The translations under genes and the position numbers were made by a program. A DNA stretch of 32,000 nucleotides from an uncultured Chloroflexia bacterium. GTDB taxonomy: Bacteria > Chloroflexota > Anaerolineae > CG2-30-64-16. Shown here piece after piece: positions 5,499-24,626 of this stretch (the stretch's first letter is position 1; each line of letters starts with the position of its first letter). The stretch covers positions 753,340-785,339 of the forward strand of contig CAVZDU010000002.1 of assembly GCA_963774265.1 (NCBI GenBank). Reading direction: 5' to 3'. The notes below the pieces were generated by a model that had not been told where the DNA came from, ran no database searches, and saw only the letters and a list, made by a program, of their open reading frames with translations.

Positions 5499-5535
5499 AA
5501 CGCATGCGGTTAAGTCCGCCATGGGCCGGCATCTA

Positions 5536-6655
5536 AGTAGGTAACAGAAAATTCGGGGCACTTCTTCGTTGCCTGATATACTGGGGTTACGGAGGGTGCC
5601 ATGATCTATGTACGAACACCAACGGATGCTGAACTGCAAGAGCTCAAGCGAATGACCCGCCATGAGATCGGGCGGGTTAGCCAACGAGCGCAGATGGTTC
5701 TGCTCTCAGCGCAGCAGCGCACGGTGCCTGAGATCGCCGTCATCTTTGGCGTCAAGTACAAGACCGTGCGCAAATGGCTCCGCCGCTTCAATGCGGCCGG
5801 GCCGGCCGGACTGTATGATGAGCCGCGCAGTGGGCGGCCGCGGACGCTGACCGACCGTGTCCGTGACACTTTGGTCGACATGAGCGAGCAGGATCCCGAG
5901 CAGTCGGACTATCCCGCGACCTTGTGGACGGTTGCGATGCTGGCCTTAGCCTTGGCCGAGAAGATCGGCGTGTATCTGAGCCATAGCACCCTGCGTCAGA
6001 CGCTGCATGCGGCCGGCCTGGCCTGGAGCCGCCCACGACTCGCCATGCCCCGCAAGACTGATCCGCAGAAGGCGGCCAAGCAGTGGGCAATAGTGCAGGC
6101 CGTGATTGGGGCTGGCCCAGCTGCAGTCGTGCTGTACGCCGACGAATCGCGCATCCAGATGCTACCGTTGATTCGAGCAATGTGGCATCGGCTGGGCCAG
6201 CAGATCCGTGTCCCGACGCCCGGCAGCAATCAGACGCGCAGCCTATTTGGAGCGCTCAACATTCGCACGGGCCAGTGGACGTGGTTGATCCGCGAGCATA
6301 TGCACAAAGAAGACTTCATCACTTTCCTGGAACACCTGTTGACGGTGTATGCCAGCGGTCCGATCATTCTGATCGTCGATAACTACTCCAGCCATACGGC
6401 TAAGGCCATCGATGCCTGGCTGACTGAGCACCCGCGACTCCAGTTGCACTACCTGCCGAAGTACTGCTCGCATCTGAATCCGGTTGAGAACATCTGGCTG
6501 CGTCTCAAAGGCCAGACCGCCGCTGACCGCTTGTACGGTTCGCTGCATGGTCTGCTGGACGCCGTCACACGCTTCTTCGACCATATGACGCCAGCGATGG
6601 CGTTGACCTGGGCCAGTCTCGACTGAAAAGTGACCCGTACTTTTTGTGACATACT
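5536..6655 (+). mobile_element. IS630-family insertion sequence, copy 1 (1120 bp)
   Basis: Boundaries come from comparison with copy 2: identity spans 5532..6658 versus 23423..24549. The ~23-25-bp terminal inverted repeats are imperfect (AGTAGGTAACAGAAAATTCGGGG versus the reverse complement of the right end, AGTATGTCACAAAAAGTACGGGT). Flanks are C-TA on the left (5533..5535) and TA-G on the right (6656..6658), matching the classical IS630 CTAG target with TA duplication. Confidence 0.9.
5601..6626 (+). CDS. IS630-family DDE transposase
   Basis: 341 aa. N-terminal HTH (RAQMVLLSAQQRTVPEIAVIFGVKYKTVRKWLRRF, SGRPR). DDE triad context YADESRI / IVDNYSSH / LNPVENIW. Confidence 0.92.
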   Translation: MIYVRTPTDAELQELKRMTRHEIGRVSQRAQMVLLSAQQRTVPEIAVIFGVKYKTVRKWLRRFNAAGPAGLYDEPRSGRPRTLTDRVRDTLVDMSEQDPEQSDYPATLWTVAMLALALAEKIGVYLSHSTLRQTLHAAGLAWSRPRLAMPRKTDPQKAAKQWAIVQAVIGAGPAAVVLYADESRIQMLPLIRAMWHRLGQQIRVPTPGSNQTRSLFGALNIRTGQWTWLIREHMHKEDFITFLEHLLTVYASGPIILIVDNYSSHTAKAIDAWLTEHPRLQLHYLPKYCSHLNPVENIWLRLKGQTAADRLYGSLHGLLDAVTRFFDHMTPAMALTWASLD

Positions 6656-6802
6656 TAGCCACCGCATGGAGCCGACGCAACCGCTTTGCGGCAAGCGTCG
6701 ACTCTGAAGCCAGTCATGCGGTTGCGCGGCTCATGCGGCACGTTGGGTAATCAAGTGACTCGCACCTGCGCCCTCACAGAAGTGTTGCGGAGGCTACCGG
6801 CA

Positions 6803-6892: not shown

Positions 6893-6893
6893 C

Positions 6894-8190: not shown

Positions 8191-8354
8191 AATTGCGGCC
8201 TAACATGGCGTGCAGTTGATCTGCTGATTTTTCCTCGGCCCGAAATTGGGTCACACTTCCTTCTGTCGGTATCTCATTCCCTTCACGACAAGCTCGAGGC
8301 CGTTGGGCGGCCCCTGACACGATCTCCCAGTGAGCATTCTGGAAAGGACGATAA

Positions 8355-9365
8355 ATGACGATTCGCCCACCCACACTCGATCCCATAGCAAGGCTTTACA
8401 ATATCTCGCTTTCTCAATTGCAGCCGGTGGCGGGAGGTCATTTTACACATGTCTACGAGTATACTGATAACAATCGGGCTTGCATCTTAAGAATCACGCC
8501 ACCTAACACGCATGTCGATCTACTTTCTATGCGAGCCACGTTAGAGTGGCTGGCTTTTTTGTCAGCTCATGCGGGGCCCGTTCCTCGCCCGATACATTCT
8601 CGGAATGGCAACTTGATCGAGGTGGTGAAGTTTGAAGATCAAGCCTACATCGCCGGCGCCTTTGAAAAAGCGCCTGGGGTATTGGCGGAAGGCATGTCGC
8701 CTGCCGATTGGCACGATGAACTCTTTCAAGCGTTGGGACGCACGGTGGGTCATTGTCATCGAGTGGCCCAACTCTATGTTCCGGCACATGCGGACTTCAG
8801 ACGCCCGGAATGGGATTGCACCGACAGCCTCTTCAATCCCGAAGAAGAGCTGCTGAGGGCTGATGGCCTCCTTTTGGAGAGACGCGCCCAAGTGTTATCA
8901 GTCATCCAATCGCTGCCGAAAAATCGCGACAGTTACGGGTTAGCGCACCTGGACTTGCACTTTGGGAACTTTTTTGTTGATATGGCCCAGCAACGGATCC
9001 TGCTTTTTGACTTTGATAATTGTGCATATGGCTGGTATATCATGGACCTCGCCATGCTGTTGTTTGATGTGCTGGTAGTCTACGCCGGTTTAGATCGGTT
9101 GCAGTTTGGCGAGCGATTCTTGGAGAATGTGCTACGTGGTTATCACACACAGGTGCCGCTTAGCCGATTTTGGGTCAGCCAGTTGCCGCACTTTCTGAAG
9201 CTGCTGGAAATCGGTGTATACCTGACGCTATATCAGACTTATGATCCGGTAACGGCAGACGAGTGGGTGAGTAAGTTCATGCCGGAGCGGCGTTATCGGA
9301 TTGAGCATAAGATACCGTATGTGGATTTGGACTTTGAAGCCCTGTATAGCAGGGCCACGTCATAA
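8355..9365 (+). CDS. Aminoglycoside/choline-kinase-type phosphotransferase (APH family)
   Basis: 336 aa. Catalytic loop LAHLDLHFGNFFVD (HxDxxxxN) and LLFDFDNCAYGW (DFD). GC is noticeably lower than in the neighbours (about 50% on sampled lines). Confidence 0.8.
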   Translation: MTIRPPTLDPIARLYNISLSQLQPVAGGHFTHVYEYTDNNRACILRITPPNTHVDLLSMRATLEWLAFLSAHAGPVPRPIHSRNGNLIEVVKFEDQAYIAGAFEKAPGVLAEGMSPADWHDELFQALGRTVGHCHRVAQLYVPAHADFRRPEWDCTDSLFNPEEELLRADGLLLERRAQVLSVIQSLPKNRDSYGLAHLDLHFGNFFVDMAQQRILLFDFDNCAYGWYIMDLAMLLFDVLVVYAGLDRLQFGERFLENVLRGYHTQVPLSRFWVSQLPHFLKLLEIGVYLTLYQTYDPVTADEWVSKFMPERRYRIEHKIPYVDLDFEALYSRATS

Positions 9366-9481
9366 ATTAAGGCCGCCCAGAGTAGAATTGGGCTAAGAAT
9401 GGAACCGACTCTGCCGCCTTCAGAAGATTATGAGCATGGCTGCTTCTCAAGCGCTGCGACAGGCGACCAGGATACGACTTG

Positions 9482-9943
9482 ATGGCCTCTGAAGATATCT
9501 ACAACTACATCAAGGTCAGTGACGAGATCGTTACCGCTGGACAACCAACTGCGGAGCAACTCAAATCGTTGGCGGCGGAAGGCTTTTCGGCAGTCGTCAA
9601 CCTTGCCACCGTCGATCCTGCTCGCTCGCCGGCGAATGAAGCCGATCTGATACGCTCGCTGGGTATAACCTACTACCATATCCCCGTGGATTGGGAAAAC
9701 CCGAAAGACACGGACTTTGCGACATTTGAGCAAACCATGTTGCAAATTCCGGGGGGCAGAACTCTGATACATTGCACCGCCAACTTCCGGGCGACTGCCT
9801 TTTACTCGCTGTACGCCCAGAAGCATCTCGGATGGTCGGCATCCCAAGCCGACGAGTTTCGCGCGGCCATCTGGAAAGGCAGTGATTACCCTATTTGGCG
9901 TGAGTTTATCGCTCGCATGCAGGCTCGGATTGTGACCCGGTAA
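9482..9943 (+). CDS. PTP/DSP-superfamily (DUF442-like) putative phosphatase
   Basis: VTAGQPTAEQLKSLAAEGFSAVVNL...GITYYHIPV...LIHCTANFRAT resembles the DUF442/beta-lactamase-hydrolase-like phosphatase fold with a Cys-Arg loop. ATG at 9482 (the track starts at TTG 9479). Confidence 0.5.
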   Translation: MASEDIYNYIKVSDEIVTAGQPTAEQLKSLAAEGFSAVVNLATVDPARSPANEADLIRSLGITYYHIPVDWENPKDTDFATFEQTMLQIPGGRTLIHCTANFRATAFYSLYAQKHLGWSASQADEFRAAIWKGSDYPIWREFIARMQARIVTR

Positions 9944-10036
9944 CTTGGATGCGCCACGCAATTGGTTGGGGCCGTCCAACCCGCGGTTGCAGGCGACTCA
10001 CACCAGCGCTCTTGCAGCACCGTTATTCAAGCTTCT

Positions 10037-10064
10037 GGCAGCCCTGCGCTTTGCGCTTAGTTCA
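10037..10064 (+). repeat. Dispersed intergenic repeat, copy C (core only)
   Basis: ggcagccctgcgctttgcgcttagttca is almost identical to the copy B core and lies between two convergent genes. Confidence 0.55.
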
Positions 10065-10089
10065 GCTCGTGAAGGAGTAGCTTACCTTA

Positions 10090-10707
10090 TCAGTTCGTCT
10101 TCTGCACCGCGGGCGGCAGCCACGGCTTCTCCGCATCGAACAACGCGTCCCCAGGCCAGTACATCCTCAGATCCACCATGAAGTTGTCCTCCGGCGCCGG
10201 GAGCCAGTTGCACTCCGTCTCGTCTGTTGGACGCTCGACTTGGAGGTACAACGTCAGCGAACCATCCGGGTTGAGGCATGGGATGCGGCCCTGGCTTCCC
10301 GGCAGACCCAGGGCATACCGGTTGCTCGAGTTGTCCACGAGCCCGTAGCCGGGTATCTGGTACATGGTCACCGACCAGAAGCCGTTGATGTTCACAGGCG
10401 GCAACTGGCCCGTGGGGAATGTGATCTGGTAGCGGTTGTTGTTGGCGCCGGTCAAGGGCTGGCCCGTCGCATCCTCGCTAGCCGTCGCATACACGGCGTC
10501 CTTGTAATAGTTTGCACCTAGCCCGAGGTAGCGGTCGCGTAGAGCGTATCGACGTTGGGCTGCACCACATACTTGAAGCTGGCGTCCGGCAGTTTCGTCG
10601 CCATTGCGAACCGGTTGATTGGAGCGCGGAGAGCCACGCTTATGGCGTCTGAGACGTTGGTAGCCGCTCGCAATGACGCTCATCATATGTTGGGTAGCAG
10701 AATTCAT
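10090..10707 (-). pseudogene. DUF1254/DUF1214-family gene remnant (internal deletion plus frame change)
   Basis: The C-terminal ~135 aa form a good DUF1214-like sequence (GANYYKDAVYA...FWSVTMY...NRYALG...LTLYLQ...NWLPAP...RMYWP). The first ~65 codons of the called frame are nonsense. The adjacent frame reads APINRFAMATKLPDASFKYVVQPNVDTLYATATSG*, which is the N-terminal DUF1254 signature. About 250 aa expected between the two parts are missing. Confidence 0.65.
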
Positions 10708-10914
10708 CGCAAGCGGGACACGGCATGATGCCCCGCGATCCGGTGCGGGTTGATGGGCTGGTCAACGCCGGCAGAAAAGTGGGAGAGGATATTGGGTTGA
10801 TCTACAATAATTCGTTAGCCCGCCTCGCGCTCCGACCACGCATCTACCGACTTGCTCGTCCGCATCACTCACCCTATACTGGGGTCAATCGCTGGCTTAC
10901 GTCAAGGAGGAACC

Positions 10915-11745
10915 ATGCCGCTGACGGATCAGATCATCCTCATTACCGGCGGTGGCCGCGGGCTCGGGCACGCCTTTGCGGACGCACTTGCGGCTGCAGG
11001 TGCCCATGTCGTCGTGACGGCCCGATCCGTTCCTGAACTCCAGCGCACGGTGGATGCTATCACGCAGCGTGGTGGACGGGCCACGGCCATGCCCGCCGAC
11101 GTCACCGATCCGGCGGCGATCCAGCGGGTGGTCATGACCATTGAAGCCCATGTCGGGCCGATTGATCTGCTGATCAACAGTGCCGGGACCTTTCGCGCCT
11201 TTGGAGCGATAGCGACCGTTGACCCCGACGACTGGTGGCGTGAGGTCGAGATCAATGTGCGCGGCCCCTTCTTGTGTACGCATGCCGTCCTGCCGGCCAT
11301 GATCCAACGCGGCCGTGGGCGCATTATCAACCTCGCGAGCGGGGCGGGACTCCAACCGTTTGAAACCATCTCAGCCTACAGTCTGAGCAAGACAGCGGTG
11401 ATTCGCCTCACGGAGAGCACCGCCCTCGAAACCCAGCCCTATGGCATTGCTGTGTTTGCGATCGATCCGGGGACGGTGCGGACCCCGATGACCGCCCATG
11501 TCGTCGAGTCGCCCGCGGTGGCGCAGCAGGCACCGCTCGTCCGCCAGTGGTTTGATCAGTTGTATGCGACCAATGGGGATACGCCGATCACCCAGGCGGT
11601 GGAGCTGGTGCTGGCGTTAGCCACCGGACAGGCCGATGCGTTGACAGGCTGTTATCTCAGCGTTGAGGACAATCTGGCAGCATTGATCCAGCAGGCTGGT
11701 CAGATTCAGCAGACGAGCCGGCGGAAACTGCGGGTCACCCTCTGA
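10915..11745 (+). CDS. SDR-family oxidoreductase
   Basis: ATG 10915 sits 4 nt after AAGGAGG (10904..10910). ITGGGRGLGHAF (TGxxxGxG), NSAG, YSLSKTAV (YxxxK). Confidence 0.85.
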   Translation: MPLTDQIILITGGGRGLGHAFADALAAAGAHVVVTARSVPELQRTVDAITQRGGRATAMPADVTDPAAIQRVVMTIEAHVGPIDLLINSAGTFRAFGAIATVDPDDWWREVEINVRGPFLCTHAVLPAMIQRGRGRIINLASGAGLQPFETISAYSLSKTAVIRLTESTALETQPYGIAVFAIDPGTVRTPMTAHVVESPAVAQQAPLVRQWFDQLYATNGDTPITQAVELVLALATGQADALTGCYLSVEDNLAALIQQAGQIQQTSRRKLRVTL

Positions 11746-11929
11746 ACCCAGCCGGGGCGCGGTGGGTCAAGCGGGGGCGAGCCGGCGTCTTTGGTCGCAG
11801 GAAACGGCTTTGCGGTCATAGTGGCTTGTGGTAACATTTATCCCAGCCAGCCTAAAGCCCCAGCTATCTGACCACCACCGAGGTCTGATCAGATCGCGGT
11901 TTCTCTCGACTTTCCGCCAGGATCGGGTC

Positions 11930-12661
11930 ATGAGTGCCGAAAACACCCAGTTCGACATCTTCCTCTCCCACAACGGTGCGGACAAGCCCGCCGTTGAGGC
12001 GCTCGCGCAACGACTGCTGGCGGCCGGGTTCAAGCCCTGGCTGGACTCCTGGAACCTGATCCCCGGCGACCCCTGGCAGGAAGGACTTGAGGAGGCGCTG
12101 GACACCTGCGGCACTTGCGCCGTGTTCCTGGGCCCCTCCGGCGTCGGCCCCTGGCACAACGAGGAAATGCGCGTCGCGCTGGACCGCCGCGCCCACGACC
12201 CCACCCGCAGCTTCCGGGTGATCCCCGTCCTGCTCCCGGGCGCCAACCCTGCTGACTCGGCTACACTCCCGCGTTTCCTGAGCCGAATGACCTGGGTGGA
12301 TTTCCGCGGCGGGCTGGATGATGCCGAAGCGTTTCGCCGCCTGGTGGCAGGCATACGCGGCGTCGCACCCGGCCCCGGCGCATCCACCGGCGCCAGGGCA
12401 ACGCCGCCAGCATCAGCCAGCGCGCCCACCTCGCAAGCCCTGACCTCCACCCCGCGCTGGCTGCTGGAAGCAGAGCTGACCCGTCTTCGGGCCCAATACG
12501 ACACCTGGAGCCGGCGCATTGCGGCCCTCGACGCCGACATCGGCCGGGCGTTGGGCAACCTGGAGAAGCAAGTGTTGGAAGAACGCCGGGCCGAAGTGGC
12601 TGCCGAGCGCCAGAAGGTCGCCGACCAGATGCAGGAGATCGAGGCTAAACTGAACACCTGA
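11930..12661 (+). CDS. TIR-domain protein with a C-terminal coiled coil (satellite 1 of the TIR-STAND locus)
   Basis: 243 aa from ATG 11930. TIR_2-like FDIFLSHNGADK..GFKPWLDSWNLIPGDPW..AVFLGPSGVGPWHNEEMRVAL..RVIPVLLPG..WVDFRGG (11951..12358). A P/A/S/T linker follows, then the coil LLEAELTRLRAQYDTWSRRIAALDADIGRALGNLEKQVLEERRAEVAAERQKVADQMQEIEAKL (12452..12658). The longer track ORF from GTG 11828 adds a non-protein-like leader. Confidence 0.85.
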   Translation: MSAENTQFDIFLSHNGADKPAVEALAQRLLAAGFKPWLDSWNLIPGDPWQEGLEEALDTCGTCAVFLGPSGVGPWHNEEMRVALDRRAHDPTRSFRVIPVLLPGANPADSATLPRFLSRMTWVDFRGGLDDAEAFRRLVAGIRGVAPGPGASTGARATPPASASAPTSQALTSTPRWLLEAELTRLRAQYDTWSRRIAALDADIGRALGNLEKQVLEERRAEVAAERQKVADQMQEIEAKLNT

Positions 12662-12676
12662 TAGTGACGAGCTGCC

Positions 12677-13519
12677 ATGCCGGACCAAGCGCCACGCTAC
12701 GAAGTCTTCCTGTCGCACAACAGCGCCGATAAAGCGGCCGTTGAGGACATCGCGCGCCGGCTGATCGCGGCTGGCCTCCAGCCTTTTCTGGACCAGTGGC
12801 ACCTGATCCCTGGCCAGCCGTGGATGGAAAGTGTAGAGAACGCACTGGCGGATAGCGCGAGCGTAGCCATCTTCGTTGGACCGTCGGGGATCAGCCCGTG
12901 GCACAACGAGGAGATGCGCGCGGCGCTCGATGAAGCGGTCCGCACGCGCGACGACTATCGGGTGATTCCTGTGCTCCTGCCCGGCGCTGACGAGACTGCG
13001 GTGGCACGTTTCCTGGCGCGACGGACATGGGTGGATTTCCGCGCCGGGCTCGACGACACCGAAGCCTTTCAACGCCTGGTCGCGGGCATCCAGGGCCAGG
13101 CTATTGACATCGGCCAATACCGGCTGCCCGATGAGCCGGCACCCTACCGCGGCCTGCTCCCCTTTGAGGCAGAGCACGCCCGCTTCTTCTTCGGCCGCGA
13201 CGCTGATATTGCGAGACTGATAGAGAAGCTAGGGCGGCAGTCCTTCGTTGCTGTCGTAGGTGCGTCGGGCAGCGGCAAATCCTCCCTGGTCAAAGCTGGT
13301 CTGTTGCCCAGACTGAAAGCCAACGCCTTGACCGACAGTGGACGCTGGCATGTATTGACGATGACTCCAGGCAGCCAGCCGCTCCCGCGCGTTGGCCGGT
13401 CAGCTTGCCACCTTCGTGCCCCCGCTCGACCGGCCGGACGCGGCCGACAAACTGGCCAGCCGCCTGGCCGAGCGGACAGACGGCTTGCGCACAACCCTGA
13501 CCGCCTTGCTGGCCGATAA
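12677..13519 (+). CDS. ORF piece 1 of the TIR-STAND-WD40 gene (TIR + Walker A); real coding ends near 13388
   Basis: Track ORF of 280 aa. Sequence after ...TMTPGSQPLP turns into R/A/G/P-rich nonsense, while frame 0 continues the protein. Confidence 0.75.
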   Translation: MPDQAPRYEVFLSHNSADKAAVEDIARRLIAAGLQPFLDQWHLIPGQPWMESVENALADSASVAIFVGPSGISPWHNEEMRAALDEAVRTRDDYRVIPVLLPGADETAVARFLARRTWVDFRAGLDDTEAFQRLVAGIQGQAIDIGQYRLPDEPAPYRGLLPFEAEHARFFFGRDADIARLIEKLGRQSFVAVVGASGSGKSSLVKAGLLPRLKANALTDSGRWHVLTMTPGSQPLPRVGRSACHLRAPARPAGRGRQTGQPPGRADRRLAHNPDRLAGR

Positions 13520-16500
13520 GCCGCGCCCTGCCCTGCTCTTCGTGGACCAGTTCGAGGAGCTTTTCACCCTCTGCCGCGGACGGGCCGGAGCACTGCCGAA
13601 TGGCGGCCGAGCAGTTCATCGCCAACCTGGCCGATGCCGCGGAGCGGGGCGACGGCCAGATTCGAGTCGTCCTCACCCTCCGCGCCGATTTCCTCGACCG
13701 CTGCCTGGCCTACCCTGACCTGCGTAAGTTGTTGGAAGATCGCCAACTGCTGCTGGGTCCCCTGGCCCAAGCCGATCTGCGCGACGCCATCGTGCGTCCC
13801 GCCCAACAGGTCGGCGCGTTCCTGGAAAAGGGCCTGGTCAATGCCATCCTGGCTGACGTCGGCGACGAGCCGGGCAACCTGCCACTGGTGCAGCACGCCC
13901 TCCACGAGCTGTGGCTGGCCCGCCGCGGCCCGTGGCTGACCCTGGACGCCTACGAGGCCAGCGGCGGCGTGGCGGGGGCGCTCGGTCGCCGCGCTCAGGC
14001 CACCTACGATGCCCTGCCACCAGAACAGCAGATCATCGCGCGCAACATCCTCCTGCGCCTTGCCACGCTAGGCGAAGGAGTCAGCGACACCCGGCGGCGG
14101 GCCGAGCGCGCGGAACTCTACCCGGTTGGCGTCGATCCGGCGCAGGTCAATGCCGTCATCCAAGCACTCTCGGGGCCGGACGCGCGCCTGCTTGTGACCG
14201 ATGAAGACACCGTTGACATGGCCCACGAGGCGCTGATCCAGGGGTGGAGCGCCTTACGCGGCTGGCTCGAGGCGAGTCGTGAAGCGTTGCGCACGCAGCA
14301 CCGGCTGACGGAGGCGGCCAACGAGTGGGGACGCGATCGAGACGAAAGCTACCTCTACCGTGGCGTACGGTTGGCAGAGATTGAGGAATGGGCCGCAGTG
14401 CACGGCCGCGGGATGAACGCGCTGGAAGCGGAATTTGTCCGGATAAGCGTTGCGATGCGTGATCGCGAAGCCCTGCGTGAAGATGAACGTCGGCGACGCG
14501 AATTGGAGCAGGCGCAAGCCCTGGCCCGTGAGCAACAGCAACGGGCAGAGGCCCAGAAAGCTTCAGCGATACGCCTGCGCCAGCGCGCCTTGCTGGCGGG
14601 CATGATCGGCTTAGTCGCATTGGTCTTTGCGTTCTTTGCGATCAGATTTGGTCTGCAGGCGCAGGCCAATGCCAACCGAGCGCGCACGCTTGAGCAATAT
14701 GCAAATGAAAAAGCGGATGACTTGCAAGTCGCCCTCGTCGGAGAGCGGGAAGCTCTCATTCGAGAGCAGGATGCTCTCTCCCAGACAGTGAAGACTCTGG
14801 ACCTCCTCAGCACTCGTGAAGTTGAGGCGCGCGCGGCGCAAGCGACTGCTGAATTCGCGAGAGTTGAGGAGGCTGAGGCCCGTGAGATGGCGGTAGACGA
14901 GCGCAACCGCGCCGAAGAACAGGTGCGCGTGGCCCGCAGCCGCCAGTTCGCCACCTATGCTGAAGCGGCATGGCCGGCTCTGCCCCAGCGCAGCCTGCTG
15001 CTCGGGGTCGAGGCGCTCCGCCAGACGCTGGATGCGGGGGAGCCGTCCGTCCCCGCGGCCGAAGACGTGGTGCGCCAGGCGCTGGTTAGCTTTAGCGGCC
15101 AGACCCTGGGCGGCCACCAGGGCGGCGTTACCGTCGCGGCCATTAGCCCTGACGGCCGCTGGTTGGCGTCCGGCGGCGGCAGCTTGTTCAGTCAAAAGGG
15201 TGATACTAACCTTCACTGGTGGGACCTTGAGGCCCCCGATCCGGCAGTCAGCCACCAGGTGATCCCTTTGGGCGACGGTTTCCTGTATCATGCTCGCTTC
15301 AGCCCGGACGCGCATTGGCTGGTGGGCAGCACGTTGGAACGGCAGGAGAATGAGCTGCGTGTGGCATCGCATCTATGGAAAGTCAGCGCCGCCGGCCTGC
15401 GGTCCACGTCGTGGCTCTCGTCGACCCTACCGATCGCCTTTAGCGCCGACGGCCGATGGTTGGTCAGCAGCCAGGGCGGGCTGCTGGGCGGAGAATCCTC
15501 TGGCCTGCTCCTGTGGGACATGATGGCGGTACCCCCCACCTCCAACACGTTGATGTCAGCTCCCCTGACGGTCTTGTCCGGGTTTGAGACAGACCAGCGT
15601 TGGCTTGTGGCCAGCGGCGCGGACGGCCGGCTCTACCTGTGGGACCTCCTCGCGCTGAGCCCCACGGCTGCTCCGGTCTCGCTGCCGGCTATGGGGGAAG
15701 TGAAGCAGGTTGCGGCCAGCCGCGATGGCCGGTGGCTGGCCGCGAGCCGTGCGGCTGGTCCGGTACACGTCTGGAATCTGGCCCGGCCGGATGCTCCCCC
15801 GACTGCCCTGGATGCCGGCATAGAAGTGGATAAGCTCGCGTTCAGCCCGAACGGCCGTTGGCTGCTCGTCCAGCCGCAGGAAGGCAGCATCTCGCTGTGG
15901 CGCCTGGAAGATCCTGGCCCCGTCTCGCCATCGCTGCTGCTATCCGGCCGGTTCTATGGCAGCCTCCAGATTGCCTTCAGCCCTGATAGCCGCTGGCTGG
16001 CGGTAGCCGTCATGGGGGTCGCGCCTCGCGTCTTGGATATGAGAGCCCCGGACCCGCCTGCCAGCGAGCTCGTGCTGACCGGCCAGTCGTGCGGGGGGCT
16101 GCTCGTCATCAGCGCGGACAGCCGTTGGTTGGTGGCTGTCGACGGCGCCCAAACCTGCATCTGGGACCTTGCCGCGAACCTCTCCGGCCAGGACCCGGTC
16201 GTCCTGCGCGGCCGGGAATCCAGCAACATGTCGCCATCGATCAGCCAGGCTGGTCGATGGCTGGCGGTCGGCGGCAGTGGGATGGTGCAACTGCACGATC
16301 TCACGCAGCCTTTGCCTGTGCCGCCGGGCACACTGCGCAGCACCCACCGCTCGGATATCGAATGGTTCGGCGTCACCCAGGACGGCCACTGGCTGGTCAC
16401 GGCCGACGACTATGACACGCGGCTTTGGGATTTGACCGGCCCGGCCATCTCGCGCGTCATCACCACCACCACCGGCTACGGCAATAAGTCCCCCACCCTC

Positions 16501-17550
16501 AGCCCGGATCGCCGCTGGCTGATCTTCGAGGGGGCCGACGGCGCCATCTATCGCACGGACATGCAGGCAGCCGATCCGGTTGCCGGCATAGGTAAGCTCT
16601 CCGGCCCCGTCAGCAACGTCCAGCGCATCCACGTCGACCGTGATAGCCGGGAGATCGTGGCTCTGGCGGCCGACGCGAAGCTCTATCGCTGGCGGCTCGC
16701 CGAGCCCGACCGTCAGCCCGAGGTCCAGGCCCTGCCCGGCGGTGACAGCAGCATCGGTGACTCGCGGATAAGCCCCGACAACCGCTGGGTCGTCATGGGA
16801 TTCCGCGTGCCCGTGCTCTTCGTCGGCGTCGCCAATCAGACGCTGCTGTGGGATACGGACGCCGCGGCGGGCGCTGGCCCCTACAATGTCAAGGCGGAGC
16901 AATCGGCCACCAGCGCCGTGGCCTTCAGCGCCGACAGCCGCACCCTGTTCACCGCCAGCACCGACGGCGCCGTGCGTGCCTGGGACTTGGCTGCGCCTGA
17001 TCCAACGGTCGATCCGCGGCTGCTCCGGGGCAATCCCTACCTGGTGACCGCCCTGGCCGCCAGTCCCGACGGGCGCTGGCTGGTAGCCGGCACGGGCTGC
17101 CCGCTCATCATCGGGGAGTGCGATCACTCGGTTCGCCTCTGGGACCTGGCACTGGCTGATCCAGGCGCGCCGCCGCTGATCCTGCGGGGGCACGCGGCCG
17201 ATATCCGGGGTCTGGCGTTCAGCAGCGACGGTCGCTGGCTGGTCACGGGAGATAGTAGCAGTGTTCTGCGCTTGTGGGACCTGGCCGCTGCGCAGCCCAG
17301 CGCCACCGTGCGCCAACTGCCGGGTGACGCGGGCGACGTGTCCTATTTTGCCTTCAGCGCGGACGATCTGACACTGATCAGCGCGAGCCAGGATGGCATC
17401 ATCCGTTTTGCGCCCCTGCGCGCCGAATCTCTCCTCGCCGCGGCCTGCCGCGCTGTGGGCCGCAACCTGTCGGTCGAGGAGTGGCAGCGCTATTTCCCTA
17501 GCGAGGACTATCGTCCCACCTGCAGCCAATGGCCTGACGCGTTGTGGTGA
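12677..17550 (+). CDS. TIR - STAND P-loop NTPase (nSTAND/NACHT-like) - TM helix - WD40-repeat protein; single gene interrupted by two 1-nt frame breaks (~1623 aa if bridged)
   Basis: Three consecutive frames carry a colinear protein. Segment 12677..~13388: TIR, PYRGLLPFEAEHARFFFGRD, Walker A GASGSGKSS at 13259..13285. Segment ~13392..~13578: LAGQLATFVPP...RPALLFVDQFEELFTLC, the Walker B. Segment ~13579..17550: DGPEHCRMAAEQFIANL...RVVLTLRADFLDRC...HEALIQGWSALRGWLE, a hydrophobic helix, at least 15 blades of [FI]S[PA]DGRWL type, and the conserved tail RNLSVEEWQRYFP..Y.PTC. Confidence 0.85.
13600..17550 (+). CDS. ORF piece 3 of the TIR-STAND-WD40 gene (NTPase C-terminal half, TM helix, WD40 array)
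   Basis: Track ORF of 1316 aa. This frame is already open and protein-like from ~13579 (DGPEHCR before the listed Met). Confidence 0.85.
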   Translation: MAAEQFIANLADAAERGDGQIRVVLTLRADFLDRCLAYPDLRKLLEDRQLLLGPLAQADLRDAIVRPAQQVGAFLEKGLVNAILADVGDEPGNLPLVQHALHELWLARRGPWLTLDAYEASGGVAGALGRRAQATYDALPPEQQIIARNILLRLATLGEGVSDTRRRAERAELYPVGVDPAQVNAVIQALSGPDARLLVTDEDTVDMAHEALIQGWSALRGWLEASREALRTQHRLTEAANEWGRDRDESYLYRGVRLAEIEEWAAVHGRGMNALEAEFVRISVAMRDREALREDERRRRELEQAQALAREQQQRAEAQKASAIRLRQRALLAGMIGLVALVFAFFAIRFGLQAQANANRARTLEQYANEKADDLQVALVGEREALIREQDALSQTVKTLDLLSTREVEARAAQATAEFARVEEAEAREMAVDERNRAEEQVRVARSRQFATYAEAAWPALPQRSLLLGVEALRQTLDAGEPSVPAAEDVVRQALVSFSGQTLGGHQGGVTVAAISPDGRWLASGGGSLFSQKGDTNLHWWDLEAPDPAVSHQVIPLGDGFLYHARFSPDAHWLVGSTLERQENELRVASHLWKVSAAGLRSTSWLSSTLPIAFSADGRWLVSSQGGLLGGESSGLLLWDMMAVPPTSNTLMSAPLTVLSGFETDQRWLVASGADGRLYLWDLLALSPTAAPVSLPAMGEVKQVAASRDGRWLAASRAAGPVHVWNLARPDAPPTALDAGIEVDKLAFSPNGRWLLVQPQEGSISLWRLEDPGPVSPSLLLSGRFYGSLQIAFSPDSRWLAVAVMGVAPRVLDMRAPDPPASELVLTGQSCGGLLVISADSRWLVAVDGAQTCIWDLAANLSGQDPVVLRGRESSNMSPSISQAGRWLAVGGSGMVQLHDLTQPLPVPPGTLRSTHRSDIEWFGVTQDGHWLVTADDYDTRLWDLTGPAISRVITTTTGYGNKSPTLSPDRRWLIFEGADGAIYRTDMQAADPVAGIGKLSGPVSNVQRIHVDRDSREIVALAADAKLYRWRLAEPDRQPEVQALPGGDSSIGDSRISPDNRWVVMGFRVPVLFVGVANQTLLWDTDAAAGAGPYNVKAEQSATSAVAFSADSRTLFTASTDGAVRAWDLAAPDPTVDPRLLRGNPYLVTALAASPDGRWLVAGTGCPLIIGECDHSVRLWDLALADPGAPPLILRGHAADIRGLAFSSDGRWLVTGDSSSVLRLWDLAAAQPSATVRQLPGDAGDVSYFAFSADDLTLISASQDGIIRFAPLRAESLLAAACRAVGRNLSVEEWQRYFPSEDYRPTCSQWPDALW

Positions 17551-17613
17551 TCTACCGCGGTGACGGTGGCGGAGAGGATCAGGCTACGAACCATCAACTG
17601 AGAGGGTCCGAAT

Positions 17614-18184
17614 ATGCCTATCGACCAGGGGTCAGCCGAGGATATGCACCTGAGGACGCAACTGGACGAGCTGCAGCGGCGCTATGATGTCCTGACAAGA
17701 CGCATCGCGGCTCTTGACATCGACATAGGTCGCGAATTGGACTCCGAGCGCAAGCTTATCCTTCAAGAGCGTCGAGCGGATCTGGAGGCTGAACGGGATC
17801 AAATCCTAAACGACCTGGTAGAATTGGATTCCGCCGTCCGCGATTCGCGACGGAGTGACACGGTCGCGCCGCCGCGTCCTCACCCAACCTCTGCGCCAAC
17901 AACTCGTGGACGCGGTTCTGCGGATTCCGGCATCCGATTCCTTTGAGGGAAGAACAGCGTTCGTGCTGGGCCTACCTGCATCACTGAGTCGCAGTCCCAC
18001 CAACGCACGCGCGGACCTCGATGCGATCTTCGGGCAACTCGATGGACTGGGCCGGTTGGATTCGGGTCAGTGGCCGCTGCTTGTGGTGATCGACAACATT
18101 CTGACCTATGCCCGTGGTTTCGAAGTTCACGGGATCATCAGCCAGGTCAGGCAGGGCCTGGAAGACGCCTACCGCGGCCATTGA
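17614..18184 (+). CDS. Coiled-coil + unassigned helical-domain protein (satellite 2); two overlapping ORFs that look like one gene with a 1-nt frame break (~189 aa if bridged)
   Basis: ATG 17614 sits 8 nt after GAGGG. ORF 17614..17946 gives the coil LRTQLDELQRRYDVLTRRIAALDIDIGRELDSERKLILQERRADLEAERDQILNDLVELDS and then P/R/T-rich nonsense. The frame open from 17822 (track ORF 17855..18184) reads ...RRVLTQPLRQQLVDAVLRIPASDSFEGRTAFVLGLPASLSRSPTNARADLDAIFGQLDGLGRLDSGQWPLLVVIDNILTYARGFEVHGIISQVRQGLEDAYRGH. GTG 17855 has no convincing RBS. Confidence 0.7.
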
Positions 18185-18220
18185 TGTACGGTCAGCGGCG
18201 CGTACGCCTCCCGCCCGCGG

Positions 18221-18250
18221 TTGTATCGCACGATACGACTTCACGGTCAT
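18221..18250 (+). repeat. 30-bp direct repeat R1 with a palindromic core
   Basis: ttgtatcgcacgatacgacttcacggtcat is 27/30 identical to R2. Confidence 0.8.
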
Positions 18251-18424
18251 CCCACCTGGGCTATCATGGCGACACTAATGTCGCCGCAGTCGGACGCCAT
18301 CACACCCTGCACCTAACGTTGAGCCCAGGGCCACGTCCGCAAGGGCGGCGCCGCAGGCTCCCTGCGCATCGCCTGCCCAGATGCCTTTGTCAGCACCGCG
18401 ACCCGCCCCCTGTGTATTCCCGTC

Positions 18425-18628
18425 TTAGTCGATGCCGTATCGGCGCAGGGTGCGGCGGACGGTGTTCGTGTGGACGCGTTCGGAGAGCGCGATTTGGCTG
18501 AGGGTGCGGCCGGCGGCGAAGGCGGCGAGGATCTGGCTCGGCTGCAGGAGGCCGGCGCGGGTGGCGAATGAGGGGGTGAGGGTGTAGGTGAACGAGAATT
18601 GTATCGTACGATACGCCTTTACGGTCAT
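18425..18628 (-). CDS. Small helix-turn-helix protein, possibly a recombinase/transposase C-terminal remnant
   Basis: 67 aa. PSQILAAFAAGRTLSQIALSERVHTNTVRRTLRRYGID looks like an HTH_7/resolvase-type helix-turn-helix. The first 20 residues are not convincing. Its ATG lies inside repeat R2. Confidence 0.35.
   Translation of the reverse strand: MTVKAYRTIQFSFTYTLTPSFATRAGLLQPSQILAAFAAGRTLSQIALSERVHTNTVRRTLRRYGID
18599..18628 (+). repeat. 30-bp direct repeat R2 with a perfect 14-bp palindrome GTATCGTACGATAC
   Basis: ttgtatcgtacgatacgcctttacggtcat; the palindrome is at 18601..18614. Confidence 0.8.
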
Positions 18629-18641
18629 AACGAGCTGTGAT

Positions 18642-20090
18642 GTAACTGTTCAGCGTTGGGGTAAGGGAGTTTAGATGGGTGCGGGTGCGCAGGCGGTCTG
18701 GGGTAGTTGGAGGGCGCGCAGACACTCGGTCAGCGGATTCAGGCGGCGGGCCTGCCAGGTACCGAACACACTGGCCAAGGTGAAGCGGGTATCGGTGCCG
18801 GCGGCGGAGCGCGAGCCGCCGCTGATTTTGCGCAGCACGACCAAGGGCCGAATGCTGCGCTCAGCCAGATTATTATCGGCTGGCACCTCCGGCAGGAGTA
18901 CAAACTGAAATAACTCGTCTTGGTGGCGCAGCAGGCGTTTCGCCAGGACCGCACAGGGCTGGGCGGGCTCCAGCGCATACTGCTGACCCAGGACACAGGC
19001 GCGGGTGTGCAGGCGCAGATACTGCTGGGTCCGGGCCGCGGCGCTGGGCGTCGGGTGCTCGTGGAGCCAGGTCTGGGCGTCCTCGTAGAGTTGGCGGACG
19101 GCCGCGGCCCACGCCAGCACCTCCGCCGTCGCCCCGTGGGCCTCTTTGAGGGCATGCAGGTCGCGCAACAGATGCACCCAGCAGCGCTGATGGTGGCCGG
19201 GGATCGGGTTGTAGGCCGCATAGAAATCCGTGACCAGACAACCCCGCCAGTCGGGACCCAAGACCCGCTGCGGCACGAAGTGGCTGCGGCCGGGATCGTA
19301 CGCGTAGTAGCGCACGGCCGCCGGACCTGCGGTCACAAAAGCCCAGGCCCAACCGTTCTGACCGCACTCGCGCCAGCTCGTTTCGTCGCCATGCACTACC
19401 GGGCTGGCCTGTACGGCCCGTTTGAGTTGCTCCGCGAGCGGCTGCAAGTGCTGCTGGACATCGTGCGCCAATTCGGCGATCTCCCCAATGCTGAGGTGCA
19501 GGCCATGCAGCGTCTGCAAGTAACTCTGCACCAGCCGCACCGGCAGTCGCAACGTCGTGCGCAAGTACGCCACCACGCTGGCGATGCGCACCCCAATCCG
19601 CCCCTGCCCAAATACCTGACCGCTCAGATCCAGTTGGGGGCTGCGCCAGCGCACACAGTGCGGACACCAGCGCTTCACCACCTGATGCTCGATCACTTCC
19701 ACCGGCTGCGGCGGCGGCAACTCCACCACTTCACGGCTATAGTCGAGGCTCTCGCCGTGCAAAGGATACTGGCAGTCCGGACAGCGCGCCAACGCATGCC
19801 GCTCGACACGCGTCGCAACCATCCGCTTGCGCGACGTGTTGTGCTCGGCCGCGCGCTTCTTACGCGGCGCGGGCGGGGTCTGAGCCTTCTGGCGATTCGG
19901 CTTTACGAACGCCGGCGGATCACCCCGCTGCTGCAGCTGCGCTTCCAGCTCATTGATCCGCGCTAGGGCGAGCGCTAACTGCTCCCGCAACTCGGCATTC
20001 GCCGCTCTCAGGCGCTCGAATGCCTGCTCTTCATCAAGGGTCATGCCCTAATCATGCCATAGCCTGTCAAGGGTAACGCTGAACAGTTAC
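18642..20090 (-). mobile_element. IS66-family insertion sequence (single-ORF type, 1449 bp)
   Basis: A perfect 16-bp terminal inverted repeat GTAACTGTTCAGCGTT lies at 18642..18657, with its complement at 20075..20090. It is flanked by the direct 8-bp duplication GCTGTGAT (18634..18641 and 20091..20098). An 8-bp TSD is typical of IS66. Confidence 0.9.
18671..20044 (-). CDS. IS66-family transposase
   Basis: 457 aa. N-terminal leucine-zipper-like coil; zinc-finger-like CPDCQYPL...CPHCVRW; then HGDETSW, VTDFYAAY, QRCWVHLLRD and the hallmark DNNLAERSIRPLVVLRKISGGSRS. Confidence 0.92.
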   Translation of the reverse strand: MTLDEEQAFERLRAANAELREQLALALARINELEAQLQQRGDPPAFVKPNRQKAQTPPAPRKKRAAEHNTSRKRMVATRVERHALARCPDCQYPLHGESLDYSREVVELPPPQPVEVIEHQVVKRWCPHCVRWRSPQLDLSGQVFGQGRIGVRIASVVAYLRTTLRLPVRLVQSYLQTLHGLHLSIGEIAELAHDVQQHLQPLAEQLKRAVQASPVVHGDETSWRECGQNGWAWAFVTAGPAAVRYYAYDPGRSHFVPQRVLGPDWRGCLVTDFYAAYNPIPGHHQRCWVHLLRDLHALKEAHGATAEVLAWAAAVRQLYEDAQTWLHEHPTPSAAARTQQYLRLHTRACVLGQQYALEPAQPCAVLAKRLLRHQDELFQFVLLPEVPADNNLAERSIRPLVVLRKISGGSRSAAGTDTRFTLASVFGTWQARRLNPLTECLRALQLPQTACAPAPI

Positions 20091-20789
20091 GCTGTGATAG
20101 CATGCCTAAGGTCGGACGATGTCATGTCTTGCACACAACCTCGATGCCCGGGGCAAGATCCTTGCGTGTGTGCCGCGCAACGTGCAGATTGAGGTTGACG
20201 AGCAGCTCATCACGGCCGTCAATTTCGTGATCGAAGCGAGAGAGTGGACACCGGCCGAGGATGGAGGGCGAGCCGGCGCCGGACACAGCGAGACTGGGGA
20301 CTAGTCAGGGAAACACCCTGCAAAATCCTGCGCTATGGTGGAGCGGAGAATCGCTCGCACGCAGATCGCTATGCCATAGCTCCTGCAAAAAGCGCCGGCC
20401 GACCTACGCGCCCGGCTGGAAGCCGTCACTACCAAGATGCCGCCAGACAGGACCGTAGTCAAGGGGATCCATGATGGCTACGACTTGATGCTGAATTGTT
20501 GCGGCAGGGCTGCACGCTTTCCACGACCGAACGCATCACATATCCGGGAACGGTATTCATGCCGAGGATTGATTGCTAAATCCGCGCTGGGTTTGTATCG
20601 GGAATCCAGCACTTCCCGGCCTGCATCAGGGGTGAGCGCGGACCACAGATTACCCCTGAGGACGCGGTTGTCGCGGTGCAGAAAGCAGAAGCGGTTTCCG
20701 AATCGGCGCGAACGTGTCAGCCCATTGAACTCGGCAGGGCTTGACCCGCTGCTGGGGGCTGCTTCCATCAGCCCCCAGCAGCTAAACAC

Positions 20790-21915: not shown

Positions 21916-21934
21916 GGGAGAGTCCTGAGAATCC

Positions 21935-23219: not shown

Positions 23220-23229
23220 AAGAGGAGTG

Positions 23230-23426
23230 TGTGATGGCAGCTGTCACGGCTTTGCTCCCTCTGAATGCATGGAAGATTGACCGCTCCAAGCCAGGCAGCG
23301 CCAGGACGCGAAGGTCGAGCTCTTGTGTGGTGAGATACTTGCACATCGCTGGCCCATGATGCGCCGGACCGTTGTTCCAGGACAGAGCGCCGTTTCAGCG
23401 CTTCAAAGTTCCGAAACAACCGTCTA
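23230..23426 (-). pseudogene. Degenerate IS630/Tc1-like transposase C-terminal remnant, cut by IS630 copy 2
   Basis: The minus strand reads ..LFRNFEALKRRSV and, in shifted frames, WNNGPAHHGPAMCKYLTTQELDLRVLALPG. This resembles the (L)DNGPxH...YL...I.L..LP block of IS630-type DDE transposases. It has no start and multiple frame changes. Confidence 0.35.
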
Positions 23427-24546
23427 AGTAGGTAACAGAAAATTCGGGGCACTTCTTCGTTGCCTGATATACTGGGGTTACGGAGGGTGCCATGATCTAT
23501 GTACGAACACCAACGGATGCTGAACTGCAAGAGCTCAAGCGAATGACCCGCCATGAGATCGGGCGGGTTAGCCAACGAGCGCAGATGGTTCTGCTCTCAG
23601 CGCAGCAGCGCACGGTGCCTGAGATCGCCGTCATCTTTGGCGTCAAGTACAAGACCGTGCGCAAATGGCTCCGCCGCTTCAATGCGGCCGGGCCGGCCGG
23701 ACTGTATGATGAGCCGCGCAGTGGGCGGCCGCGGACGCTGACCGACCGTGTCCGTGACACTTTGGTCGACATGAGCGAGCAGGATCCCGAGCAGTCGGAC
23801 TATCCCGCGACCTTGTGGACGGTTGCGATGCTGGCCTTAGCCTTGGCCGAGAAGATCGGCGTGTATCTGAGCCATAGCACCCTGCGTCAGACGCTGCATG
23901 CGGCCGGCCTGGCCTGGAGCCGCCCACGACTCGCCATGCCCCGCAAGACTGATCCGCAGAAGGCGGCCAAGCAGTGGGCAATAGTGCAGGCCGTGATTGG
24001 GGCTGGCCCAGCTGCAGTCGTGCTGTACGCCGACGAATCGCGCATCCAGATGCTACCGTTGATTCGAGCAATGTGGCATCGGCTGGGCCAGCAGATCCGT
24101 GTCCCGACGCCCGGCAGCAATCAGACGCGCAGCCTATTTGGAGCGCTCAACATTCGCACGGGCCAGTGGACGTGGTTGATCCGCGAGCATATGCACAAAG
24201 AAGACTTCATCACTTTCCTGGAACACCTGTTGACGGTGTATGCCAGCGGTCCGATCATTCTGATCGTCGATAACTACTCCAGCCATACGGCTAAGGCCAT
24301 CGATGCCTGGCTGACTGAGCACCCGCGACTCCAGTTGCACTACCTGCCGAAGTACTGCTCGCATCTGAATCCGGTTGAGAACATCTGGCTGCGTCTCAAA
24401 GGCCAGACCGCCGCTGACCGCTTGTACGGTTCGCTGCATGGTCTGCTGGACGCCGTCACACGCTTCTTCGACCATATGACGCCAGCGATGGCGTTGACCT
24501 GGGCCAGTCTCGACTGAAAAGTGACCCGTACTTTTTGTGACATACT
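23427..24546 (+). mobile_element. IS630-family insertion sequence, copy 2 (identical to copy 1 as far as I can compare)
   Basis: The offset is exactly 17891 nt from copy 1, and every six-frame ORF translation inside the element is identical in the two copies. Flanks are C-TA (23424..23426) and TA-G (24547..24549). Confidence 0.9.
23492..24517 (+). CDS. IS630-family DDE transposase (copy 2)
   Basis: The 341-aa translation is identical to that of 5601..6626. Confidence 0.92.
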   Translation: MIYVRTPTDAELQELKRMTRHEIGRVSQRAQMVLLSAQQRTVPEIAVIFGVKYKTVRKWLRRFNAAGPAGLYDEPRSGRPRTLTDRVRDTLVDMSEQDPEQSDYPATLWTVAMLALALAEKIGVYLSHSTLRQTLHAAGLAWSRPRLAMPRKTDPQKAAKQWAIVQAVIGAGPAAVVLYADESRIQMLPLIRAMWHRLGQQIRVPTPGSNQTRSLFGALNIRTGQWTWLIREHMHKEDFITFLEHLLTVYASGPIILIVDNYSSHTAKAIDAWLTEHPRLQLHYLPKYCSHLNPVENIWLRLKGQTAADRLYGSLHGLLDAVTRFFDHMTPAMALTWASLD

Positions 24547-24626
24547 TAGAGCCGACTGAAGGCAGATTACCACCTGTCCAGTCAGCCATCCAACGCTCTC
24601 AACTTGCGGTATCGGACCGCTTTCAA

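Follow-up and report, generated by a model that had tools for sequence, protein, structure and literature searches.

We analyzed a window of 32,000 nucleotides (nt) of DNA from an uncultured Chloroflexia bacterium (contig CAVZDU010000002.1) and found at positions 11930-18184 three plus-strand genes which probably constitute a lineage-specific variant, the lineage probably being Chloroflexota, of a class of STAND NTPase conflict systems, coupled by effector-associated domains (EADs), that Kaur, Burroughs, Iyer and Aravind had predicted. Gene 1 codes for a TIR domain followed by a linker and a coil, gene 2 for a TIR-nSTAND1 NTPase with a transmembrane (TM) helix and WD40-like blades, and gene 3 for a homologous coil followed by a helical domain, designated X. 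The genes are separated by only 15 nt (genes 1 and 2) and 63 nt (genes 2 and 3), and each runs from an ATG to a stop codon at the boundaries given in Table 1, as an earlier note on this DNA had read them. The evidence consists of the domain identities, intact Walker A and B motifs, the alignment of the TIR Glu, the paralogy of the two TIR domains, the homology of the two coils, synteny, a conserved TM helix and purifying selection.

The earlier note had classed the locus as an NLR-like TIR-STAND-repeat conflict system, and matches to the Pfam families TIR_2, nSTAND1 and WD40 bear this class out. It had also taken the arrangement of the two small satellite genes for an unrecognized one. The homologous helix shared by genes 1 and 3 and the synteny of the TIR-coil and STAND genes in a close clade both stand, but the coupling logic had already been published: the EAD8-like domain X, the EAD9-like coil and the EAD principle itself (PMC7159879, section 30; PMC8195603) all count against novelty. 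The locus is therefore not a new system, as every component and the coupling idea are in the literature, although the exact triad is not.

Table 1. Features of the three-gene locus and of the insertion sequence (IS) elements around it, in window positions (ORF, open reading frame).
Feature	Position	Strand	Evidence or details
Gene 1, 243-aa TIR-linker-coil protein, intact	11930..12661	+	ORF; Pfam TIR_2 E=1.7e-27, aa 10-139
Gene 1 TIR domain, WHNEEM with putative catalytic Glu	11957..12346	+	Pfam; alignment to gene 2 TIR
Gene 1 C-terminal coil, EAD9-like, one long helix	12455..12655	+	AlphaFold2; 41% identity to gene 3 coil
Gene 2, TIR-nSTAND1-TM-WD40, 1623 aa repaired, three frames here	12677..17550	+	ORFs, Pfam, homolog alignment
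Gene 2 TIR domain, 59% identical to gene 1 TIR	12704..13081	+	Pfam TIR_2 E=1.6e-27
nSTAND1 NTPase module: GASGSGKSS (K201), LLFVDQFEE, HEALIQGW	13142..14340	+	Pfam PF20703 over three frames
Predicted single TM helix, aa 635-661, charged coiled-coil flanks	14581..14661	+	Mean Kyte-Doolittle 2.69
About 16 WD40-like blades, two propellers, presumed sensor	15076..17547	+	Pfam WD40/beta-propeller families; blade count
Gene 3, coil + EAD8-like adaptor, about 190 aa repaired, two frames here	17614..18184	+	ORFs and homologs
Gene 3 N-terminal coil, EAD9-like	17644..17844	+	Pfam EAD9 18.2 bits vs 25
Gene 3 C-terminal domain X, five-helix divergent EAD8-like	17870..18181	+	AlphaFold2 pLDDT 82.6; profile relatives
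Frame break 1, extra C, CC->CCC	13384..13386	+	DNA alignment A2 with three homologous loci
Frame break 2, extra C, C->CC	13574..13575	+	DNA alignment A2 with three homologous loci
Frame break 3, one base missing, Arg codon within GCGCCGCCGCGTCC	17875..17877	+	Homolog boundary motif PPRVLTQP
IS630-like element copy 1, left bracket	5532..6658	+	DDE_3 transposase, 341 aa; 1127 bp
IS630-like element copy 2, right bracket	23423..24549	+	100% identical to copy 1
IS66-family element, context only	18642..20090	-	DDE_Tnp_IS66; 16-nt perfect inverted repeats (GTAACTGTTCAGCGTT); 8-bp target duplication GCTGTGAT

Domain architecture and conservation of the locus

Gene 2 codes for the core component. It had been described as a TIR domain, a STAND P-loop NTPase, one hydrophobic helix and at least 15 blades, with which the Pfam matches and our count of about 16 blades agree, and the quoted motifs GASGSGKSS, LLFVDQFEE and HEALIQGWSALRGWLE were all found in it. 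The gene is divided among three frames (12677-13519, 13392-13718 and 13600-17550), across which the nSTAND1 profile (PF20703, cut-off 27.1 bits) is matched in order: positions 1-88, 95-133 and 137-375, with 109.2, 25.3 and 265.7 bits, respectively. The third frame gave the best nSTAND1 match (E=1.3e-78) as well as the WD40 match (E=5.9e-42). When repaired, gene 2 aligned without gaps to its homologs, with 85% identity to P0035 and 64-70% to the others (P-numbers denote homologous proteins and L-numbers the loci that were fetched). K201, D290, Q291 and E293 are invariant in an alignment of 27 sequences (A1), and the sequence follows both the Walker A pattern GxxGxGKS and the Walker B pattern hhhhDQxEE. 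E79 of the TIR domain is nearly invariant in the same alignment and aligns with the Glu of WPQKEL in PdTIR (3H16) and of WTEYEL in 7UXR. We take this Glu, which lies in an S-x-W-x3-E motif, to be the catalytic residue of TIR NADases.

A segment equivalent to the predicted TM helix was present at the same place in 70 of the 86 homologs long enough to judge. Downstream of it, 13 strict D-x-x-W-L blades with a spacing of 42-53 aa, together with a degenerate stretch of 187 aa, give the count of about 16. As the NTPase must be inside the cell and basic residues are more prominent on the N-terminal side of the TM helix than on the other, the propellers should lie outside the cytoplasm, which suggests an extracytoplasmic WD40 sensor, a possibility that the earlier note had not considered. 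The family is large: at least 3956 TIR-nSTAND1 relatives were found at E<=1e-30, with WD40, FGE-sulfatase, BNR/Sortilin or histidine-kinase C-termini, and the named relatives were mostly from Chloroflexota/Anaerolineae and Myxococcota.

Gene 1, judged by its sequence, is a free paralog of the gene 2 TIR domain that carries a long EAD9-like helix. The two TIR domains score almost equally against Pfam TIR_2 (96.7 bits for gene 1 and 96.8 bits for gene 2, cut-off 28 bits) and share an identical WHNEEM. The division of the protein into TIR, linker and C-terminal coil, proposed from the letters alone, is reproduced by Pfam and by the AlphaFold2 model, in which a TIR fold is followed by a disordered linker (residues 152-171) and one continuous helix (residues 176-242, pLDDT about 90). 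The dN/dS values of gene 1 were 0.17-0.26 against orthologs in L083, L084 and L168, and those of genes 1 and 2 together spanned 0.13-0.28, indicating purifying selection.

The helix at the end of gene 1 and that at the start of gene 3 are homologous, as had been claimed (BLASTP E=5e-17, 41% identity over 74 aa), and each is a single helix of 67 residues. Homologs of this coil are short proteins in which the coil is terminal and its partner varies (EAD7, Big_5, a TM segment or none). Among 26 coil proteins, EAD9 was the commonest Pfam family, matched by 13 with a best E of 1.9e-4 and by none above 25 bits, and on this evidence the coil is EAD9-like rather than EAD9. When the coil profile was used in a further protein search, all it retrieved was 13 short coil proteins, and in none of the matches was the coil joined to a core NTPase.

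Domain X of gene 3, which is read in two frames (17614-17946 and 17855-18184), was modeled by AlphaFold2 as a five-helix bundle of 104 aa. The earlier note had considered it unassignable. Direct searches do fail, and Foldseek of the model against PDB and BFVD gave nothing below E=0.7 (TM<=0.45), with Pyrin/AIM2 only among the noise, yet the domain is assignable as a divergent EAD8 type through its relatives. An X profile retrieved 218 proteins from 1.84 billion cluster representatives, and Pfam EAD8 was found on 19 of 76 longer relatives. In individually checked proteins the coordinates of EAD8 coincided with the X-homologous stretch, and in three of them EAD8 exceeded its 27-bit cut-off (P0185, 32.3 bits; P0172, 30.0 bits; P0164, 33.9 bits). 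Some relatives scored better as EAD5 or EAD2, both of which are linked to EAD8 in the HHpred table of Kaur et al. X occupies protein termini, and its fusion partners in the family include EAD1, Trypsin_2, TIR_2, EAD5/2/7, iSTAND, SIR2_2, PNP_UDP_1, LRR-Roc-COR and caspase; one member, P0172, combines SIR2, TCAD9 and EAD8. The nearest relatives (63-80% identity) are EAD1+X proteins of about 206 aa, and the gene 3 fusion probably arose by a recent swap of EAD1 for the coil.

X is thus, to judge from these relatives, a divergent EAD8-like adaptor domain, and since the coil is EAD9-like, gene 3 would be an enzyme-free adaptor made of two interaction modules. EADs are small non-enzymatic modules, of which one copy sits on a core component of an NTPase system and others on effectors next door or elsewhere; they have been proposed to bridge components by homotypic contact, like Death-fold domains, with EAD9 placed among the recruiters of signaling components and EAD8 among those of effectors (PMC7159879). 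Both the coil and X are small, non-enzymatic, terminal and alpha-helical. The coil also occurs in at least two copies in adjacent genes with variable partners, which is true of X at the level of the family and not in the window. Two unnamed modules can thereby be assigned, namely an EAD9-like coil family and a divergent EAD8-like family of 218 cluster representatives that Pfam mostly misses.

The arrangement was judged in seven independent loci of the close clade (64-85% identity). In five of them the STAND gene is immediately preceded by a TIR-coil gene: the window, L083, L084-86, L168/169 and L001, in the last of which half of the coil is deleted. It is missing from L082, where an IS66 element splits the STAND gene, and from L167 (66% identity), which has an FGE sensor. 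The two genes are 13-29 nt apart in the four intact loci (L083, L084-86, L168/169 and the window, with its 15 nt). The linkage on which the earlier note had staked its proposal therefore holds in the close clade but is absent from remote loci. No TIR-coil satellite was found in the roughly 34 remaining TIR-nSTAND1 loci, the close relative L167 among them, and neither coil nor X occurred within 10 kb in 160 nSTAND1 loci from genome and metagenome collections (<=60% identity). When 40 fused TIR-nSTAND1 ORFs were scanned, a separate TIR gene on the same strand within 1.5 kb was seen in the close clade; the sole other case of a separate TIR was L032, with an extra TIR ORF downstream that overlaps the STAND ORF.

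Downstream coil genes were present in all four loci with downstream sequence, and their C-terminal parts differ, being EAD8-like in the window and a short tail in L001. A coil ORF was recognized in L084, and L168 codes for two coil proteins, one of 84 aa that is coil only and one of 290 aa in which a TM segment and an unassigned domain are added. In L001, L084 and L168 there are 2-3 coil genes per locus. After the coil ORF of L084, at 8369-8937, another frame encodes an endonuclease-looking stretch (VPERRLAIYMDGASVH), presumably DUF559/Vsr-like, and the contig ends there; the stretch may belong to a coil-nuclease fusion that a frameshift has broken, or else to a gene of its own. Between the STAND gene and the downstream coil genes of L001 (9679-12259), L084 (5740-8368) and L168 (6042-8767), two proteins are encoded that are lipoprotein-like or secreted; the larger has about 610 aa and an HExxH metalloprotease-like motif, and the smaller about 260 aa. 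Both are missing from the window, and the pair fits an extracytoplasmic sensing module. A further coil pair, a 123-aa coil protein and a coil-Big_5-CHAT protease, was found in the unrelated helicase/FGE locus L170 (10001-14892) beside a DEAD/Helicase_C-MZB helicase and an FGE-sulfatase protein; this different conflict context is the behavior expected of an EAD.

Frame breaks in an IS-bracketed segment

The earlier note had spoken of bridged and repaired proteins. The frame breaks implied by this wording are present in the sequence, and three sites were located by comparison with homologous loci (Table 1). As genes 2 and 3 are both out of frame, the locus as sequenced yields no full-length product of either, and two 1-nt insertions keep the nSTAND1 module of gene 2 from forming a single continuous ORF. 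Programmed frameshifting was ruled out, as three homologous loci read through both gene 2 sites. In gene 3, the conserved PPRVLTQP is divided: frame 1 reads 'APPR' and frame 2 reads 'RVLTQP'. This motif spans the break, which excludes two unrelated fragments, and its division half and half between the two frames indicates that gene 3 was ancestrally one ORF.

The locus lies in an IS-bracketed accessory region, in agreement with the earlier reading: we found two IS630-like copies and an IS66-family element. The IS630-like copies are directly oriented and bracket, in the manner of a composite transposon, a segment of roughly 16.8 kb that contains the locus and all broken genes; the source assembly has the same transposase on 5 contigs. 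The IS66-family element is compact, with a single ORF, and is a clean, probably recent insertion. Between this element and gene 3 there is a 67-aa helix-turn-helix-like ORF on the minus strand (18425-18628). In L082 (2115-7817) an ortholog of the TIR-nSTAND1 part (67% identity) is parted from its WD40 repeats by an IS66-family transposase of 457 aa, the same length as that in the window; the two elements have no nucleotide match to each other (BLASTN, E<=1e-20).

These data bear on the strongest rival explanation, a recently dead remnant, in which the breaks are real, the accessory segment is decaying and nothing here functions now; for the window copy, we incline slightly to this view. Gene 2 has two frame breaks, gene 3 and the LarA-like gene have one each and the amidohydrolase genes at least two, which makes at least six within 6659-23422, and the roughly 13.7 kb of coding sequence beyond these limits showed none. 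Such a split has a chance of about 0.013 under a uniform rate, and because all breaks fall inside the IS630-bracketed segment, real decay of that segment is favored. Damage other than 1-nt changes is present too, namely an internal deletion in an amidohydrolase gene and a truncated DUF1214 remnant; the IS66 element inserted cleanly, with a target duplication, 457 nt after gene 3; and the orthologous STAND gene of L082 is likewise split by an IS66 element. On the other hand, each of the three breaks of the locus changes the length of a C or CG run by a single base, as is typical of consensus errors, and the 3.9-kb frame past break 2 is free of stops and colinear with homologs. Two independent +1 events 190 nt apart in an otherwise undamaged gene would be odd for neutral decay. 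The assembly, in contigs of 0.9-1.5 Mb, is compatible with long-read data, and if not every strain carries the accessory segment, its coverage could be lower and its indel errors more numerous. Consensus error in a poorly covered accessory region is a plausible source of the breaks.

Comparison with known systems and working model

The nSTAND1 family was named by Kaur et al. in 2021 (eLife 10:e70394; PMC8195603), who described STAND sensors that have either a TIR or an EAD, including EAD8, at the N-terminus. The source data of that study list 'TIR+nSTAND1+TM+...' 16 times, including TIR+nSTAND1+TM+BetaPropeller, and EAD8+nSTAND1 14 times, including EAD8+nSTAND1+FGS (eLife 10:e70394). The first of these architectures has the same domain order as gene 2, with the TM segment at the same position; the listed examples, such as HAA13664.1, differ in having neither TIR+EAD9 nor EAD9+EAD8 neighbors, and the window copy is frameshifted. 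The second shares the NTPase family with gene 2 and, with an EAD8+trypsin neighbor, follows the same idea of a duplicated small helical domain that couples an effector to a sensor; an EAD8-nSTAND1-FGE protein with an EAD8-trypsin neighbor was also described by Dore et al. (PNAS 2024, PMC10907252). There the EAD sits on the NTPase, whereas the NTPase in the window carries a TIR, the EAD-like pair links the two satellites, and no partner for the EAD8-like domain is encoded in the window.

A closer parallel to genes 1 and 2 is found in Nostoc minutum NIES-26, where the same source data place a TIR+EAD9 gene next to an LRR+AP-GTPase+COR+TIR sensor: in both cases a small TIR+EAD9 type of protein adjoins a repeat-sensor NTPase that bears a TIR itself. 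The Nostoc sensor, however, is a Roc-COR GTPase and not nSTAND1, its TIR+EAD9 gene is on the opposite strand, a two-EAD adaptor is not listed, and the coil in the window is EAD9-like at a score below threshold. In the source-data file with the nSTAND1 neighborhood table, neither an 'EAD9+EAD...' adaptor nor TIR+EAD9 was found.

With Avs1-5/bNACHT, Thoeris ThsB and AbTir/PdTIR the locus shares a STAND NTPase with repeat sensor and N-terminal effector, and its TIR Glu aligns with solved bacterial TIRs. Characterized systems of the Avs/bNACHT type are cytosolic single proteins that sense phage proteins, whereas for the gene 2 protein a membrane-spanning topology is predicted, and it is accompanied by adaptors. 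The locus belongs to no PADLOC system; in PADLOC-DB v2, only generic TIR-containing models matched it (25-37 bits), and no model matched the NTPase-WD40 part, the coil or X. WD40 and FGE sensors have been reported on defense-associated STANDs in a 2026 survey (PMC13581612). The animal TLR-MyD88-IRAK pathway offers an analogy only, and we claim homology for no part but the TIR. Its receptor, as is predicted for that of the window, combines an external repeat sensor with a single TM helix and a TIR on the cytoplasmic side, MyD88 is similar to gene 1 in joining a TIR to a homotypic module, and a further protein is recruited through the homotypic module of the adaptor, an interaction that we infer for the window locus. 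The receptor in the window differs in that its N-terminus would be inside, a STAND NTPase is inserted and a coiled coil takes the place of the Death domain.

Several points weigh against placing the locus among EAD-coupled systems. Its layout, so far as the sequences tell, departs from the published pattern in that the core component has no EAD (gene 2 and all orthologous STAND proteins gave no match to the coil or to X) and in that adjacent coils are not closest relatives: the coil of gene 3 shares 60-75% identity with coils of other organisms and 41% with that of gene 1, and being nearer to foreign coils it does not show the published closeness of adjacent copies. Neither coil reaches the EAD9 (PF19962) cut-off of 25 bits (18.2 bits for gene 3 and 13.8 bits for gene 1). 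Domain X itself matched no Pfam family even at E<=10, no NCBIfam family and no PADLOC model, and EAD8 (PF19961) did not match it directly. The coil+X fusion occurred in no other of about 160 members of the X family, which makes the exact triad a singleton, and no second EAD8-like domain was found in the window or in the 170 fetched loci. Three frame breaks fall within 6.2 kb. Finally, the known satellite logic is itself a computational prediction, all EAD-coupled conflict systems rest on comparative genomics, and we found no experimental test of EAD pairing in the literature examined.

Our working model for the locus as an EAD-coupled system concerns interactions, membrane topology, NADase output and a defense role that we infer from the features described above. 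Gene 2 would be a single-pass membrane NLR-like receptor whose extracytoplasmic WD40 propellers bind a cue. Ligand binding would cause the nSTAND1 NTPase to oligomerize in the cytoplasm and the N-terminal TIRs to cluster, and the clustered TIRs may then hydrolyze NAD+ or make a nucleotide signal. As the STAND protein has no coil or EAD, gene 1 would most likely join the clustered receptor TIRs through TIR-TIR contact. The EAD9-like helix of gene 3 could pair with the gene 1 helix, while its EAD8-like domain could bind NTPases that carry EAD8, or EAD8-carrying effectors such as trypsin, TIR, SIR2 or PNPase proteins, encoded elsewhere in the genome. The furthest-reaching form of the model, drawn by analogy to TLR-MyD88, is a three-tier TIR relay in which receptor TIRs nucleate gene 1, whose coil leads through gene 3 as a bridge to EAD8-bearing effectors elsewhere; we regard it as unlikely. 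If true, the relay would amount to an EAD network whose entry point is a TIR and not the NTPase, and it would be the first bacterial TIR sensor linked downstream by heterotypic TIR-TIR recruitment and not by nucleotide signaling. A compact operon of this kind, in which a TIR-coil protein and at least one coil-partner protein accompany a TIR-STAND receptor, would be a tractable test case for the EAD principle, for heterotypic TIR recruitment and for extracytoplasmic nSTAND1 sensing, and the intact orthologous loci L084-86 and L168/169 are better starting material than the frameshifted window copy.

The anti-phage role put forward in the earlier note, which would be one form of the presumed defense function, has a competitor in a surface-sensing pathway of cell death or kin recognition in a filamentous multicellular bacterium, the propeller reading an external or envelope cue. 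To this we assign a low probability. The conserved TM helix between NTPase and sensor, the orthologous operons with two lipoprotein-like or secreted proteins (one with HExxH) and a coil-TM protein, the best-named relatives in Anaerolineae/Chloroflexota and the reported enrichment of such systems in multicellular prokaryotes (Kaur et al., PMC7159879; PMC8195603) are all consistent with it, but the characterized bacterial STANDs (Avs, bNACHT) are anti-phage (PMC13581612), and surface sensing and phage defense are not mutually exclusive.

It is less probable still that the satellites act as brakes, the TIR-coil protein and gene 3 forming a guard- or antitoxin-like complex that caps the receptor TIRs and blocks auto-activation. 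The co-transcription-like spacing, the conserved synteny and the TIR paralogy suit this idea as well as they suit recruitment, and the roughly 34 TIR-nSTAND1 loci without a satellite suggest that TIR-STAND is self-sufficient in most of the family, so that an added partner could regulate it. However, gene 1 retains WHNEEM with its putative catalytic Glu, which a pure inhibitor would not need, and both adaptor domains have relatives in fusions with proteases, TIR, SIR2 and PNPase, which fits effector recruitment better. Coincidental adjacency, with genes 1 and 3 coming from other systems and lying beside the STAND gene in a defense island, is very improbable: the gene 3 architecture is a singleton, coil proteins also occur in unrelated loci and distant nSTAND1 loci have no coil genes, but the TIR-coil gene stands on the same strand directly upstream in five independent loci (64-85% identity), and coil genes follow in 4 of the 4 loci with downstream sequence.

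Other features of the window

A sigma70-like promoter had been proposed at 11810..11837, upstream of gene 1. Its TTGCGG agrees with TTGACA at 3 of 6 positions, and our scan did not call the site; over the whole 7.2 kb scanned, one site was called, elsewhere, with 0.7 expected by chance, and the proposed site is no better than chance. No convincing terminator was seen between the three genes, and the window contains no tRNA gene and no Rfam family. Antisense ORFs (e.g., 15940-17529 and 11767-12678) were taken as shadow frames of high-GC DNA.

Within the IS-bracketed segment, two tandem Amidohydro_2 genes (20790-23219) are broken across frames, one of them with an internal deletion, and a LarA-like gene is frameshifted near 22365-22380, with Lar_N positions 4-140 and 135-196 in different frames. 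On the minus strand at 10090-10707, a 205-aa ORF has about 70 residues upstream of a DUF1214 domain; it looks truncated and abuts an SDR gene at 10852-11745. An APH-family kinase gene (8355-9365) matched 'ternary complex associated domain 9' (TCAD9) weakly and below threshold (20.5 vs 40 bits, E=3e-4), which probably reflects generic kinase similarity. Outside the segment, an intact minus-strand gene (370-3555) codes for a 1061-aa BTAD + AAA_16 + TPR protein, a SARP/AfsR-like STAND-type regulator unrelated to nSTAND1.

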